A stretch of DNA of 64,000 nucleotides from Pristiophorus japonicus. Lineage: Eukaryota. Below are positions 36,871 through 54,733 of this stretch, piece by piece; within the stretch, counting starts at the first letter, position 1; each line of letters starts with the position of its first letter. Made by a program: the position numbers and the translations under genes. Location of the stretch: NCBI RefSeq assembly GCF_044704955.1, contig NC_091978.1:17670001-17734000 (forward strand), read 5' to 3'. The notes beneath the pieces are model-generated. The model was not told the origin of the DNA and did not search any database. It saw only the letters and a program-made list of their open reading frames with translations.

Positions 36871-37407
36871 TTTCAGTCCTCATAGTTATAGCCTCAGAAT
36901 TACTTTAGCAATTTATACGCTCCTTTAATCTTCCCAAGGCAAAGAATTTGTCAGGCATACGGCTGGTCCCTGATAGATATGTGCTTTGTTAAATATCCCT
37001 GGATTTTACATTCTCTCCGATACTTTCACCGCTGATTTGTAACCTCATCTCATTTGAAGTTAGGACCACCAATCTGTCACCATCAAAAGAATAATTGGAG
37101 TCAAGTTGACATTTAATTTCCACCACTGGTGTGACATGAGATGGCAAGAAAGGGATATGCTAGGCTAGTGATTGTGGTGCTGCATGAGCAAACCAGAGGT
37201 CAAGAGTTCTTATTTACAACAGTGACTACACTTTCAAAGATACTCATTGTCTGTAAATTGCTTTGCGATGTCCTGAGGTTGTAAAAGGTGCTGTATAACT
37301 ACAATTACTGCCTTCCAACATGGTCACATCCCAAGAACACGTCAAATACATTTTTGGGCTGGCTATGTGTGTTATTTAAAATGCAAATTTTAATGGGGCT
37401 TTACATC

Positions 37408-38090
37408 AGCAGCAACTCCCAAACCCACGACCACTATCACGAAGAGGGTCGAGGGCAGCAGACGCATGGGAACACCACCACCTCCATGTTCCCCTCCAAG
37501 TCACACACCATCCTGACTTGGAAATATATCGCCGTTCCTTCATTGTCGCTGGGTCAAAATCCTGGAACTCCCTCCCTAACAGCACTGTGGGAGCACCTTG
37601 ACCACACGGACTGCAGCAGTTCAAGGCGGCGGCTCATCACCACCTTCTCAAGGGCAATTAGGGATGGGCAATAAATGCCAGCCTGTTCTCGGCCTTTTGG
37701 CTAAGATCATGCGTAACTGACCTGACAGGGGAGTAGCCACCATGACCTCCGGGTGGTTCTCCCTGGATCAGGAAGGTATATGCTTGCTTTTTTGGAAACA
37801 GGAGGTGGGTGGGGTGGCTTGACCCATCCACCTCCACGGAGGTGTGTGGGGGACCTGACCCATCCACCTCCATGGCACGAACCTGGTATTGCAGTACTTC
37901 CAGGAACGGTGCAGTGGCTCTAGGCCTTTTGGCTAAGAGCATTGGCGCAGAGTGATCCTTGGCGTGTGCAAGGTGACCTCTGGCGTTTGTGATTTGACAA
38001 AGAATTGGAACGATTGGCTACGAATTTAAAAAAAAAAAAAAAAATGCCGGCCTGGCCGGTGATGCCCACATCCATGAACGAATAAAAAAC
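37408..38090 (+). mobile_element. LINE family B 3' end, interrupted in its tail by the snRNA-derived retroposon
   Basis: ccctccaagtcacacaccatcctgacttggaaatat..gggatgggcaataaatgcc|..|tggccggtgatgcccacatccatgaacgaataaaaaa. Confidence 0.85.
37686..38044 (+). mobile_element. Composite U2/U1 snRNA-derived retroposon (SINEU-like) with poly(A) tail and TSD
   Basis: 37686-37715 matches U2 nt 6-35 (28/30); 37716-37772 is U1 5'-like; ~37788-37913 is U2 Sm site/SLIII/SLIV (acctggtattgcagtacttccaggaacggtgca); 37917-37940 is a second U2 SLI-like hairpin; A17 tail; 13-bp TSD aaatgcc(a/g)gcctg. Confidence 0.88.
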
Positions 38091-47036: not shown

Positions 47037-50000
47037 GGGTCCAAGTTTTCACACGATAAAAAACGGGCGCCCCTCCGAGCTGGGCGCCTGTTTTTCGCGC
47101 CTAAAACGGTGCCTAAAAAAAAAACTCGCAATTCTGGAGCGTTCTGCAGCTCCTTGTCTGCCTGGCGCGGCGCCCAGGGGGGCGGAGGCTAAACTCACGC
47201 CGATTTTGTAAGTGGGAGGGGGCGGGTACTATTTAAATTAGTTTTTTTTCCTGTCGGCAATGTTGCGCGTGCGCGTTGGAGTGTTCGCACATGCTCAGTG
47301 TGAAAAAAACATTGGCACTCGGCCATTTTTGTAGTTCTTTGTAGCTGTTTAATTTTTGAAAAATTTTAATAAAAGCACATTAGCACTTGCAGCCTTCTCA
47401 CTGTCTCCCCCCCCCCCCCCCCCGCGGGAACCAAGCGACTGTTTAATTCCCCCCCCCCCCCCCGCGGGAACCAAGCGACTGTTTAATTCCCCCCCCCCCC
47501 CCCGCGGGAACCAAGCGACTGTTTAATTCCCCCCCCCCCCCCCGCGGGAACCAAGCGACTGTTTAATTCCCCCCCCCCCCCCCGCGGGAACAAAGCGACT
47601 GTTTAATTCCCCCCCCCCCCCCGCGGGAACGAAGCGACTGTTTAATTCCCCCCCCCCCCTCCACAGGAACGAAGCGACTGTTTAATTCCCCCCCCCCCCC
47701 CCTCCACAGGAACGAAGCGACTGTTTAATTCCCCCCCCCCTCCACGGGAACGAAGCGACTGTTTAATTCCCCCCCCCCCCCCCACAGGAACGAAGCGACT
47801 GTTTAATTCCCCCCCCCCCCCCCACAGGAACGAAGCGACTGTTTAATTCCCCCCCCCCCCCCCACGGGAACGAAGCGACTGTTTAATTCCCCCCCCCCCC
47901 CCCACGGGAACGAAGCGACTGTTTAATTCCCCCCCCCCCCCCCACGGGAACGAAGCGACTGTTTAATTCCCCCCCCCCCCCCCCCACGGGAACGAAGCGA
48001 CTGTTTAATTCCCCCCCCCCCCCCCCACGGGAACGAAGCGACTGTTTAATTCCCCCCCCCCCCCCCACAGGAACGAAGCGACTGTTTAATTCCCCCCCCC
48101 CCCCCCACGGGAACGAAGCGACTGTTTAATTCCCCCCCCCCCCCCCACAGGAACGAAGCGACTGTTTAATTCCCCCCCCCCCCCCCACGGGAACGAAGCG
48201 ACTGTTTAATTCCCCCCCCCCCCCCACAGGAACGAAGCGACTGTTTAATTCCCCCCCCCCCCCACAGGAACGAAGCGACTGTTTAATTCCCCCCCCCCCC
48301 CCCCACAGGAACGAAGCGACTGTTTAATTCCCCCCCCCCCCCCCACAGGAACGAAGCGACTGTTTAATTCCCCCCCCCCACAGGAACGAAGCGACTGTTT
48401 AATTCCCCCCCCCCCCACAGGAACCAAGCGACTGTTTAATTCCCCCCCCCCCCCCACAGGAACGAAGCGACTGTTTAATTCCCCCCCCCCCCCCACAGGA
48501 ACGAAGCGACTGTTTAATTCCCCCCCCCCCCCCACAGGAACGAAGCGACTGTTTAATTCCCCCCCCCCCCCCCCCCACAGGAACGAAGCGACTGTTTAAT
48601 TCCCCCCCCCCCCCCACGGGAACGAAGCGACTGTTTAATTCCCCCCCCCCACAGGAACGAAGCGACTGTTTAATTCCCCCCCCCCCCCCCGCGGGAACCA
48701 AGCGACTGTTTAATTCCCCCCCCCCCCCCCGCGGGAACCAAGCGACTGTTTAATTCCCCCCCCCCCCCCCCGCGGGAACCAAGCGACTGTTTAATTCCCC
48801 CCCCCCCCCCCCGCGGGAACAAAGCGACTGTTTAATTCCCCCCCCCCCCCCACAGGAACGAAGCGACTGTTTAATTCCCCCCCCCCCCCCCGCGGGAACG
48901 AAGCGACTGTTTAATTCCCCCCCCCACGCGGGAACGAAGCGACTGTTTAATTCCCCCCCCCCCCTCCACAGGAACGAAGCGACTGTTTAATTCCCCCCCC
49001 CCCCCCCACAGGAACGAAGCGACTGTTTAATTCCCCCCCCCCCCCCCTCCACAGGAACGAAGCGACTGTTTAATTCCCCCCCCCCTCCACGGGAACGAAG
49101 CGACTGTTTAATTCCCCCCCCCCCCCACGGGAACGAAGCGACTGTTTAATTCCCCCCCCCCCCCCCACAGGAACGAAGCGACTGTTTAATTCCCCCCCCC
49201 CCCCCCACGGGAACGAAGCGACTGTTTAATTCCCCCCCCCCCCCCCACAGGAACGAAGCGACTGTTTAATTCCCCCCCCCCCCCCCACGGGAACGAAGCG
49301 ACTGTTTAATTCCCCCCCCCCCCCCCACAGGAACGAAGCGACTGTTTAATTCCCCCCCCCCCCCCACGGGAACGAAGCGACTGTTTAATTCCCCCCCCCC
49401 CCCCACAGGAACGAAGCGACTGTTTAATTCCCCCCCCCCCCCACAGGAACGAAGCGACTGTTTAATTCCCCCCCCCCCCCCACAGGAACGAAGCGACTGT
49501 TTAATTCCCCCCCCCCCCCCACAGGAACGAAGCGACTGTTTAATTCCCCCCCCCCCCCCCACAGGAACGAAGCGACTGTTTAATTCCCCCCCCCCCACAG
49601 GAACGAAGCGACTGTTTAATTCCCCCCCCCCCCCCCACAGGAACGAAGCGACTGTTTAATTCCCCCCCCCCCACAGGAACGAAGCGACTGTTTAATTCCC
49701 CCCCCCCCCACAGGAACCAAGCGACTGTTTAATTCCCCCCCCCCCTCCACAGGAACGAAGCGACTGTTTAATTCCCCCCCCCCCCCCACAGGAACGAAGC
49801 GACTGTTTAATTCCCCCCCCCCCCCCACAGGAACGAAGCGACTGTTTAATTCCCCCCCCCCCCCCCCCCACAGGAACGAAGCGACTGTTTAATTCCCCCC
49901 CCCCCCCACGGGAACGAAGCGACTGTTTAATTCCCCCCCCCCCCCACGGGAACGAAGCGACTGTTTAATTCCCCCCCCCCCCCCCCCCACAGGAACGAAG

Positions 50001-53000
50001 CGACTGTTTAATTCCCCCCCCCCCCACAGGAACGAAGCGACTGTTTAATTCCCCCCCCCCCCCCACGGGAACGAAGCGACTGTTTAATTCCCCCCCCCCA
50101 CAGGAACGAAGCGACTGTTTAATTCCCCCCCCCCCCCCCACGGGAACGAAGCGACTGTTTAATTCCCCCCCCCCCCCCCCCCACAGGAACGAAGCGACTG
50201 TTTAATTCCCCCCCCCCCCCCACGGAACGAAGCGACTGTTTAATTCCCCCCCCCCCCCCCCACAGGAACGAAGCGACTGTTTAATTCCCCCCCCCCCCCA
50301 CAGGAACGAAGCGACTGTTTAATTCCCCCCCCCCCCCCACGGGAACGAAGCGACTGTTTAATTCCCCCCCCCCCCCCACGGGAACGAAGCGACTGTTTAA
50401 TTCCCCCCCCCCCCCCCACGGGAACGAAGCGACTGTTTAATTCCCCCCCCCCCCCCCCCCCACAGGAACGAAGCGACTGTTTAATTCCCCCCCCCCCCCC
50501 CCCGCGGGAACCAAGCGACTGTTTAATTCCCCCCCCCCCCCCCACAGGAACGAAGCGACTGTTTAATTCTCCCCCCCCCCCCCCCCGCGGGAACCAAGCG
50601 ACTGTTTAATTCCCCCCCCCCCCCCCCCCCACAGGAACGAAGCGACTGTTTAATTCCCCCCCCCCCCCCCCCGCGGGAACGAAGCGACTGTTTAATTCCC
50701 CCCCCCCCCCCCCCGCGGGAACGAAGCGACTGTTTAATTCCCCCCCCCCCCCACAGGAACGAAGCGACTGTTTAATTCCCCCCCCCCCCCCCGCGGGAAC
50801 GAAGCGACTGTTTAATTCCCCCCCCCCCCCCACAGGAACGAAGCGACTGTTTAATTTCCCCCCCCCCCCCCCCGCGGGAACCAAGCGACTGTTTAATTCC
50901 CCCCCCCCCCCACAGGAACGAAGCGACTGTTTAATTCCCCCCCCCCCCCCCCCCCGCGGGAACCAAGCGACTGTTTAATTCCCCCCCCCCCCCCCACAGG
51001 AACGAAGCGACTGTTTAATTCCCCCCCCCCCACAGGAACGAAGCGACTGTTTAATTCCCCCCCCCCCCCCCACAGGAACGAAGCGACTGTTTAATTCCCC
51101 CCCCCCCCCCACAGGAACGAAGCGACTGTTTAATTCCCCCCCCCCCCCCCCACGGGAACGAAGCGACTGTTTAATTCCCCCCCCCCCCCACAGGAACGAA
51201 GCGACTGTTTAATTCCCCCCCCCCCCCACGGGAACGAAGCGACTGTTTAATTCCCCCCCCCCCCCTCACAGGAACGAAGCGACTGTTTAATTCCCCCCCC
51301 CCCCCCACAGGAACGAAGCGACTGTTTAATTCCCCCCCCCCCCCCCCACAGGAACGAAGCGACTGTTTAATTCCCCCCCCCCCCCCACAGGAACGAAGCG
51401 ACTGTTTAATTCCCCCCCCCCCCCCCCCGGCGGGAACTAAGCGACTGTTTAATTCCCCCCCCCCCCCACAGGAACGAAGCGACTGTTTAATTCCCCCCCC
51501 CCCCCCCCACGGGACCGAAGCGACTGTTTAATTCCCCCCCCCCCCCACAGGAACGAAGCGACTGTTTAATTCCCCCCCCCCCCCCCACGGGAACGAAGCG
51601 ACTGTTTAATTCCCCCCCCCCCCCCACAGGAACGAAGCGACTGTTTAATTCCCCCCCCCCCCCCCCCACAGGAACGAAGCGACTGTTTAATTCCCCCCCC
51701 CCCCCCCACGGGAACGAAGCGACTGTTTAATTCCCCCCCCCCCCCCCCACGGGAACGAAGCGACTGTTTAATTCCCCCCCCCCCCCCCCCGGGAACGAAG
51801 CGACTGTTTAATTCCCCCCCCCCCCCCCACAGGAACGAAGCGACTGTTTAATTCCCCCCCCCCCCACGGGAACGAAGCGACTGTTTAATTCCCCCCCCCC
51901 CCCGGGAACCAAGCGACTGTTTAATTCCCCCCCCCCCTCCACAGGAACGAAGCGACTGTTTAATTCCCCCCCCCCCCCTCCCCGGGAACCAAGCGACTGT
52001 TTAATTCCCCCCCCCCCCCCTCCCCGGGAACCAAGCGACTGTTTAATTCCCCCCCCCCCCCCCCCCCACAGGAACGAAGCGACTGTTTAATTCCCCCCCC
52101 CCCCCCCACAGGAACGAAGCGACTGTTTAATTCCCCCCCCCCTCCCCGGGAACCAAGCGACTGTTTAATTCCCCCCCCCCCCTCCACAGGAACGAAGCGA
52201 CTGTTTAATTCCCCCCCCCCCCCCCCGCGGGAACCAAGCGACTGTTTAATTCCCCCCCCCCCCTCCACAGGAACGAAGCGACTGTTTAATTCCCCCCCCC
52301 CCCCCCGCGGGAACGAAGCGACTGTTTAATTCCCCCCCCCCCCCCCACGGGAACGAAGCGACTGTTTAATTCCCCCCCCCCCCCTCCCCGGGAACCAAGC
52401 GACTGTTTAATTCCCCCCCCCCCCCCCCACAGGAACGAAGCGACTGTTTAATTCCCCCCCCCCCCCCACGGGAACGAAGCGACTGTTTAATTCCCCCCCC
52501 CCCCCCCCGGGAACGAAGCGACTGTTTAATTCCCCCCCCCCCCCCCACAGGAACGAAGCGACTGTTTAATTCCCCTCCCCCCCCCCACGGGAACGAAGCG
52601 ACTGTTTAATTCCCCCCCCCCCCCCCACAGGAACGAAGCGACTGTTTAATTCCCCCCCCCCCCCACGGGAACGAAGCGACTGTTTAATTCCTTCCCCCCC
52701 CCCCCACAGGAACGAAGCGACTGTTTAATTCCCCCCCCCCCCCCCAAGGGAACGAAGCGACTGTTTAATTCCCCCCCCCCCCCCACAGGAACGAAGCGAC
52801 TGTTTAATTCCCCCCCCCCTCCTCAGGAACGAAGCGCGACTGTTTAATTCCCCCCCCCCCCCCCACAGGAACGAAGCGACTGTTTAATTCCCCCCCCCTC
52901 CACGGGAACGAAGCGACTGTTTAATTCCCCCCCCCCCCCCCACGGGAACGAAGCGACTGTTTAATTCCCCCCCCCCCCCCCCCACGGGAACGAAGCGACT

Positions 53001-54733
53001 GTTTAATTCCCCCCCCCCCCCCCCCACGGGAACGAAGCGACTGTTTAATTCCCCCCCCCCCCCCCCCACGGGAACCAAGCGACTGTTTAATTCCCCCCCC
53101 CCCCCTCCACGGGAACCAAGCGACTGTTTAATTCCCCCCCCCCCCCCCCACAGGAACGAAGCGACTGTTTAATTCCCCCCCCCCCCTCCACGGGAACCAA
53201 GCGACTGTTTAATTCCCCCCCCCCCCCCACAGGAACGAAGCGACTGTTTAATTCCCCCCCCCCCCCCCACGGGAACCAAGCGACTGTTTAATTCCCCCCC
53301 CCCCCCCACGGGAACGAAGCGACTGTTTAATTCCCCCCCCCCCCCCCCACGGGAACGAAGCGACTGTTTAATTCCCCCCCCCCCCCCCACGGGAACGAAG
53401 CGACTGTTTAATTCCCCCCCCCCCCCCCCCCACAGGAACGAAGCGACTGTTTAATTCCCCCCCCCCCCCCACGGGAACGAAGCGACTGTTTAATTCCCCC
53501 CCCCCCACGGGAACGAAGCGACTGTTTAATTCCCCTCCCCCCCCCCACAGGAACGAAGCGACTGTTTAATTCCCCCCCCCCCCCACGGGAACGTAGCGAC
53601 TGTTTAATTCCCCCCCCCCCCCCACAGGAACGAAGCGACTGTTTAATTCCCCCCCCCACAGGAACGAAGCGACTGTTTAATTCCCCCCCCCCCCCCCACA
53701 GGAACGAAGCGACTGTTTAATTCCCCCCCCCCCCCTCCACGGGAACCAAGCGACTGTTTAATTCCCCCCCCCCCCCCCTCCACGGGAACCAAGCGACTGT
53801 TTAATTCCCCCCCCCCCCCCCCCCCACAGGAACGAAGCGACTGTTTAATTCCCCCCCCCCCCCCCACGGGAACCAAGCGACTGTTTAATTCCCCCCCCCC
53901 CCCCCACGGGAACGAAGCGACTGTTTAATTCCCCTCCCCCCCCCCCCACGGGAACGAAGCGACTGTTTAATTCCCCCCCCCCCCCCCCCCACGGGAACGA
54001 AGCGACTGTTTAATTCCCCCCCCCCCCCCCAAGGGAACGAAGCGACTGTTTAATTCCCCTCCCCCCCCCCCACGGGAACGAAGCGACTGTTTAATTCCCC
54101 CCCCCCCCCCCCACAGGAACGAAGCGACTGTTTAATTCCCCCCCCCCCCCACGGGAACGAAGCGACTGTTTAATTCCCCCCCCCCCCACGGGAACGAAGC
54201 GACTGTTTAATTCCCCTCCCCCCCCCGCGGGAACGAACGGCTGCAGAATTCTCCCTGCCTGAAGCACTTTCACACAGGTAGGAAGATGGTTTATTTAATC
54301 TTTTCTTTGCTTATAAATGTTTATTCAGGTTGGATTTATTTGTATAATATTTGTAGAAGTATAAATAAGGATTGATTGTAGAATTTAATGAGTTCCCTTC
54401 CCCCCCCCCCCCCCACCTCGTTCTGGACGCCTGATTTGTAACCTGCGCCTGATTTTTTAATGTGTAGAACAGGTTTTTTCAGTTCTACAAAAATCTTCAC
54501 TTGCTCCTTTCTACTTTAGTTTGGAGTACGTTTTCACTGTGGAAACTTTCAAATCAGGCGTCAGTGGCCGGACACGCCCCCTTTTGAAGAAAAAATTCTG
54601 TTCCAAAGTAGAACTGTTCTACCTGACTAGAACTGCAGAAAAAAAAATGTGGAGAATTGCGATTTCTAAGATAGTCCGTTCTCCACCAGTTGCTCCTAAA
54701 AATCAGGCGCAAATCATGTGGAAACTTGGGCCC
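47037..54733. mobile_element. Harbinger-type non-autonomous element expanded to 7.7 kb by an internal minisatellite
   Basis: TIRs GGGTCCAAGTTTTCACACGAT / ATCATGTGGAAACTTGGGCCC; 3-bp TSD ACA on both sides. Confidence 0.88.
47407..54237. repeat. ~40-bp tandem minisatellite, unit C(n)-AC[A/G]GGAACGAAGCGACTGTTTAATT, roughly 170 copies
   Basis: Directly visible; near-invariant core separated by variable poly-C runs; copy number estimated from length/40. Confidence 0.98.

Follow-up and report, generated by a model that had tools for sequence, protein, structure and literature searches.

A young U2/U1-derived SINE, its probable Keno-like mover and candidate source copies inside U2 genes

In the parts of the primary description drawn on here, SINEU are reported from crocodilians only, with Tx1-Mar, of a group clustering with Keno, as their mover; most copies are old, their transcription is left as an open question, and it is asked whether SINEU are SINEs at all (Kojima 2015, PMC4494074). 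A 2017 review, likewise as excerpted, repeats the crocodilian range (PMC5381603). U2 genes are a known target of Keno (Tx1 clade) and Utopia, whose 3' flank begins at U2 nt 39 (PMC4640811; PMC6136364); Keno has an apurinic-type endonuclease, and the excerpts of these two papers mention no non-autonomous passenger. R2 and R2/R1 SIDEs of Drosophila are non-autonomous, occupy a multicopy RNA gene at the site of their partner LINE and rely on the transcription of that gene; they are deleted LINEs, with a ribozyme and a LINE 3' end, in Pol I rRNA genes (Eickbush and Eickbush 2012, PMC3414825). Small nuclear RNA (snRNA) retropseudogenes and U6/L1-type chimeras contain snRNA sequence, have target-site duplications (TSDs) and use LINE machinery, and each retropseudogene arises independently from a cellular snRNA (excerpts of PMC4494074).

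The element described here is an insert in a window of 64,000 nt (C2:17670001-17734000; the window is the whole stretch of DNA analysed), and its relatives were sought in the 5.9-Gb assembly. Its family resembles SINEU-1, -2 and -3, as characterized in the excerpted source, in consisting of short (<500 bp), non-coding, poly(A)-ended copies, multiplied from master copies and bearing U1/U2-derived heads with repeated head additions; in tandem insertions; in internal oligo-T without a recognizable Pol III promoter; in a tail not shared with the partner LINE; and in a Tx1-type LINE partner that is inferred from common targets (PMC4494074). Compared by description, it differs in its module order (U2-U1-U2-U2-tail), in having copies inside U2 genes at +1, and in its target: SINEU prefer Mariner-N4_AMi and have Tx1-Mar as partner (PMC4494074), a preference not found here, where the preferred sites are U2 nt 38/39 itself and a site in LTR-retrotransposon pol. 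To judge from the letters, the family probably originated independently of crocodilian SINEU, because its modules follow this genome's own U1 and U2 variants.

The 3' flank at U2 nt 39 is shared with Keno and Utopia, and the partner LINE, like Keno, has an apurinic-type endonuclease; unlike either element the SINE is non-autonomous, and unlike Keno the LINE here has relaxed site use and a U2-like head of its own. With SIDEs the SINE shares residence in a multicopy RNA gene at its partner's site and, as proposed below, reliance on host-gene transcription. In contrast to SIDEs it is made of snRNA pieces, has no recognized LINE-derived tail and is dispersed to thousands of sites, and it would need no cleavage because its head would rebuild the host 5' end; R2 SIDEs are, by analogy, its nearest mechanical counterpart. 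Its snRNA sequence, TSDs and LINE machinery recall retropseudogenes and snRNA chimeras, but its copies share diagnostic letters and are not independent retrocopies.

Structure and abundance of the insert

The TSD, the terminal A17 and the order of modules that the initial annotation had read from the sequence are all borne out by direct reading (Table 1); the two TSD copies differ at 1 position, and the final 3 A of the A17 are common to the right TSD. The surrounding repeat, which we take to be a LINE 3' end, is occupied at the same site in loci L002 and L020. The repeats of this stretch would suit a cartilaginous fish. Full copies of the element begin at U2 +1 and measure 347 nt, and the window copy is without the first 5 nt; neither this loss nor the tandem duplication of the SLIII-like hairpin had been mentioned in the initial annotation. 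The U2 head ends within the branch-point pairing sequence, and the U1 module has a change within the 5' splice-site pairing stretch. The RNA of the element folds considerably better than shuffled sequence (z -5.5 vs 100 shuffles). Elsewhere in the window (47409-54237) lies a GC-rich 40-bp tandem array of 172 copies with strong strand skew.

Table 1. Features of the insert and its surroundings (positions in the window). Module matches are alignments of a full natural SINE copy to this genome's own U2 and U1 genes.
Feature	Position	Strand	Evidence
Host repeat upstream of insertion	37400..37672, resumes 38055 to ~38090	+	7 matches in window, 80-100%
Left TSD, 13 nt	37673..37685	+	
U2 head, U2 nt 6-35	37686..37715	+	33/35 in full copy (U2 nt 1-35); Rfam U2
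U1 module, U1 nt 3-52 (5' end and stem-loop I)	37716..37767	+	41/53, E 6e-7
Internal T6 at U2 Sm-site position	37788..37793	+	element nt 108
U2 stem-loop III (SLIII)-like hairpin, tandem duplicate, period 36 nt	37801..37872	+	Sm/SLIII region 37/50 to U2 nt 100-147
U2 stem-loop IV, U2 nt 153-186	37881..37914	+	32/34; paired in Rfam alignment and fold
Second U2 5' hairpin (second head), U2 nt 7-29	37919..37941	+	21/23
Family-specific tail	37942..38027	+	homologous to shorter tail of U2-only relative, by alignment
Poly(A), A17	38028..38044	+	
Right TSD, 13 nt	38042..38054	+	1 mismatch

A search of the Rfam models supports one of the two claimed snRNA sources and not the other. U2 scores 51.2 bits against a gathering threshold of 46 and is the only model to reach gathering in the window, while the U1 model gives no match to the insert up to E 10. 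The initial annotation had named a missing Rfam U1 match as grounds for refutation, and formally that is the outcome; it is overruled because the insert aligns directly to the genome's own U1 gene. The score of this alignment is 56, the maximum among shuffled sequences is 28, and none of 2,000 shuffles reached it; in a sister subfamily the U1 module matches at 45/55 positions. Weak matches to Prion_pknot, L20_leader, PVT1_4 and pRNA did not reach gathering and were attributed to chance.

The insert had been proposed to be one copy of a propagating SINE and not a one-off pseudogene, and the copy numbers agree. A 342-nt query returned 1,261 candidates, of which 40 were scored; among the 42 matches listed, 38 are identical over the full length (window copy included), on many contigs and with differing flanks and TSDs. 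Searched separately, as had been suggested, the tail gave 40 identical matches among the 40 scored, all on C1. Genome-wide, a 37-mer specific to the window's subfamily (A) has 402 exact copies, a pattern of the sister subfamily (A') 132, and a 35-mer common to the U1-bearing family 5,304, with 0 for the controls in each case. The first 30 of the 402 A copies include 10 without a substitution relative to a full A copy, mean divergence outside the anchor being 0.55%, and automated calling recognized a TSD at 46 of 61 loci. In a second study of the same organism 56-72% of sampled SINE words were present in three samples, so its presence is not confined to this assembly; one third of the words occurred in a single sequencing run of a second organism, which is no evidence of range. 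No RNA run was among the sequencing runs listed as containing the words. We regard it as practically certain that the family is real, young and SINEU-like.

The tail is common to several subfamilies and to an older U2-only relative (B), and diagnostic letters and internal rearrangements are common to hundreds of copies. In the least-derived B copy (L147) the tail begins where the second U2 head stops, exactly at U2 nt 38 (the Keno site); in one subfamily a 5'-truncated body is preceded by a head that is exactly U2 1-38. A derivation of the tail from a Tx1/L1 3' UTR, raised as a possibility at the outset, found no support: the tail has no homology to the Keno-like LINE described below, and all 30 tail loci fetched are SINE bodies (18 near-full, 12 truncated), so the tail was rejected as a LINE 3' end. 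Ten of the 12 truncated copies (L033, L043, L045, L046, L048, L051, L052, L053, L054 and L059) have their start in the first SLIII-like hairpin (query nt 113-132), a position that suggests a stop of reverse transcription. Older subfamilies have AATAAA before the poly(A) (L120, L145, L119); the youngest are without it (window 38010-38027), and their A tail would therefore be template-encoded. Trains of 3-4 copies of differing subfamilies, with the same TSD between them, occur at L007, L031, L278-L281 and L286-L287, and the single copy L050 has acquired an extra U2 5' piece.

A Keno-like LINE and its target sites

U2 genes of this genome form arrays on C1003 and C19, with a unit of ~770 bp, and on C9 with a different upstream flank. 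A 5.7-kb LINE lies in the arrays of C1003 (17652-23371, minus strand) and C19. It has two open frames: ORF2 (1,147 aa) contains endonuclease, reverse transcriptase (RT) and zf-RVT domains (PF03372, PF00078, PF13966), and ORF1 (581 aa) contains RNA-binding domains and a zinc knuckle (PF23057, PF23058, PF00098). The apurinic-type endonuclease, the RT and the two ORFs are those of a Keno-like element, as is the insertion site, where the poly(A) joins at U2 nt 38/39 and the 3' flank begins at U2 nt 39; the ESM Atlas returned only RT/endonuclease clusters without names. The element has 489 3' ends genome-wide, and none of 30 fetched from C1-C2 lies before a true U2 gene, so its specificity for U2 is not strict.

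The Keno-like LINE has a U2-like head of its own (L093/L101; C1003:23371, C19:69721004), and in C19 it starts at +1 behind the U2 flank, with an octamer-like motif ~55 nt in; it may use the U2 promoter in the same way as is proposed below for the SINE. In the C9 array (C9:111,016,000-111,038,600) units at L096 and L098 contain a Keno 3' fragment, then the U2-only relative in 1-2 copies, then a remnant of U2 39-191, and these units have been duplicated along with the array.

SINE junctions fall exactly at U2 nt 38/39 in 45 cases (control 0): true U2 genes account for 6, B copies for 35 and tandem trains beside B copies for 4. Of the 35, 7 are not independent, all lying in one duplicated region of C8. 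For dispersed sites, 106 copies were reduced to 61 with a TSD, 48 not in tandem and 47 distinct, and removal of 6 further rows adjoining the poly(A) of an earlier copy left 41. Median TSD length is 15 (9-24) for these 41 SINE sites and 14 (13-18) for the Keno-like LINE, a small sample in which 9 of 22 copies were usable. Of the 41 SINE sites 21 have the motif GY/AW (the slash marks the insertion point), whose background frequency in flanking DNA is 7.2% (p 6e-14; construction fixes the A, in the background too). Of the 7 Keno-like sites with an initial A, 3 have the motif (p 0.01), and at the U2 site the sequence is GT/AT. Canonical L1 targeting of TT/A was considered and is not enriched (4/41 SINE sites, p 0.4). 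A family member lies within 80 nt of 3 of 30 Keno-like 3' ends, and the Keno-like copy L246 and the SINE copy L285 were inserted at the same base of one repeat.

A second hot spot was observed among 120 screened SINE loci, 10 of which (L007, L008, L011, L019, L058, L262, L265, L267, L270, L288) are inserted antisense at one site in LTR-retrotransposon pol, between its RNase H and integrase parts; it recalls the preference of crocodilian Tx1 families for LTR elements.

The initial annotation had proposed a Tx1/L1-type LINE as the mobilizing partner; the common site, TSD length, motif and tandem insertions narrow this to the U2-targeting Keno-like LINE, which very probably moves the SINE.

SINE copies inside U2 genes

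Three A' copies occupy consecutive units of the C19 array (69,721,780-69,724,304, minus strand) and one lies in the C9 array (111,037,120-111,037,443, plus strand). Such copies had not been foreseen in the initial annotation. In these residents the SINE head stands in for U2 nt 1-38, nothing is duplicated, and U2 nt 39 follows directly on the A tract. U1-bearing copies at +1 were sought genome-wide with a pattern that required one of the two U2 flanks upstream, which gave 20 matches: 17 C19-type and 1 C9-type residents, all of them A', plus 2 that are dispersed and have TSDs of their own. Twelve of the 17 C19-type residents are on unplaced contigs, which may be redundant assemblies of one array. 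The 220 nt upstream are unchanged in 15 of the 17 (the other two have 13 and 77 gapless mismatches), as are the 280 nt upstream of the C9 resident, and U2 39-191 plus 45 nt are unchanged in all 18. Resident A tracts are 20-110 nt long, vs dispersed medians of 10.5 (A) and 18 (A'). None of the 20 matches at +1 belongs to subfamily A, that of the window, and B likewise has no match at +1 behind either known U2 flank. Contig C1003 has 42 U2 heads and no SINE.

The C19-type residents comprise two nested haplotypes, two letters apart, with a common array junction. Of the newer there are 18 occurrences: 16 lie in arrays, and the other 2 are identical dispersed twins, one with its own 12-nt TSD and an A27; the older has dispersed twins at L126 and L271. 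Comparison of 30 dispersed A' copies with the resident haplotypes gives only 2 that are equal; 9 differ by one step from the older C19 type and 7 by one step from the C9 type, and none is a twin of the C9 resident. From the nested haplotypes and their twins we infer that change in place followed by export from the array is likelier than two independent hits on U2 genes by rare haplotypes, because very few of the 5,304 insertions are in true U2 genes.

Most dispersed near-full copies begin at the U2 start site: 43 of 64 do so at U2 nt 1-2, and a TSD abuts this start in 31 of the 43; the 20 copies without a TSD have no upstream 12-mer in common. Three simple A/B box patterns found no such box in the element, whose head is not of the tRNA, 5S or 7SL kind that holds the promoter of canonical Pol III SINEs. 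Oligo-T terminates Pol III, according to the section of the crocodilian study used here (Kojima 2015, PMC4494074), and the internal T6 would therefore do so.

On this sequence evidence the resident A' units are likely to be source copies, and more likely than not the window's subfamily had the same kind of origin, in a resident unit of a U2 gene. The missing A and B residents and the divergent dispersed A' copies would fit turnover of source units in unstable arrays. In the mechanism proposed, an snRNA-type Pol II promoter would transcribe resident units from +1, the U2 head rebuilding the 5' end of the gene; Keno ORF2 would prime in the A tract, leading to insertion at the U2 site or at relaxed GY/AW sites; and array turnover would multiply and later remove source units, so that one subfamily would succeed another, the window's stemming from a unit since lost or unassembled. 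Each new U2-gene insertion could found a subfamily with a fresh U2 head. The family would have begun when the tail was inserted at U2 nt 38 and a full U2 was joined upstream, which would give the U2-only relative; later, a 5' piece of U1 and a new U2 head would have been added. The joint reading, a young U2/U1 SINE with a Keno-like mover that is transcribed from copies in U2 genes through the external U2 promoter, is in our judgement probable. On balance we also favour the wider view of a still active promoter-less SINE that is a parasite of the host's U2 genes as well as of a site-specific LINE, the array amplifying the source and the LINE scattering thousands of copies.

Alternative readings and significance

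Much of this could also be accommodated if the Keno-moved SINE were transcribed from promoters in host flanks or from an unrecognized internal one, the U2-gene copies being by-products of target preference that the array multiplied. The most numerous young subfamily examined (402 heads) has no resident copy, 28 of 30 dispersed sister copies differ from the residents, and the 5' extensions of crocodile SINEU-2 point to flanking promoters in the excerpted account (Kojima 2015, PMC4494074). We nevertheless think this unlikely: the 5' ends here stop at U2 +1 with no extensions in common, an internal promoter is at odds with the T6 and the lack of an A/B box by simple patterns, and few-copy haplotypes would have had to hit true U2 genes repeatedly and independently, if the two nested haplotypes and their twins are read as above. 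Another Tx1 or L1 family, or Utopia, might be the main mover, the Keno-like element merely sharing the target, a view to which the lack of tail homology and the common 3' flank of Utopia and Keno at U2 nt 39 (in the portion used of PMC4640811) lend something; it is improbable given that the Keno-like element is the only one encountered in the 160 kb of U2 array DNA fetched, that TSD length, motif, tandem insertions and off-target sites are common to it and the SINE, and that the L1-type TT/A is not enriched (4/41, p 0.4).

Two further accounts were weighed. The array residents might be a variant snRNA gene maintained by the host, with the dispersed copies as its retropseudogenes; their multiplication in the array with intact flanks and the folding of the RNA far better than shuffles (z -5.5) would suit such a gene, but the residents interrupt U2 and end in a variable A tract at a LINE target site, subfamilies turn over, and C1003 has its 42 U2 heads and no SINE, which makes this very improbable. 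Chimeric snRNA retropseudogenes formed by template switching, once or repeatedly, would explain the occasional extra U2 5' piece on a single copy such as L050; the 38 copies that are identical over 342 nt but lie on many contigs, each with its own flanks and TSD, and diagnostic letters common to hundreds of copies, leave this account hardly any probability, and it is refuted by those copies together with the 402 heads and 5,304 35-mers.

The literature search found no snRNA-headed SINE from another vertebrate group and no Keno passenger; Repbase and Dfam lay outside it, and an existing entry there is possible. Within the searchable literature, the family would extend snRNA-headed SINEs beyond crocodilians for the first time and give U2-targeting LINEs their first passenger; if the proposed mechanism is true, it would also show a Pol II snRNA promoter in the role of a SINE promoter. 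With a very young family, candidate source loci and an intact partner LINE, the question of SINEU transcription becomes directly testable, and diagnostic letters separate resident from dispersed copies. Young dispersed copies would, moreover, serve well as markers in population studies. Fresh U2 heads gained from U2-gene insertions would, if the mechanism holds, also explain the recurring U2 heads of crocodilian SINEU, and a borrowed U2 promoter would offer a testable answer to how promoter-less elements get copied.
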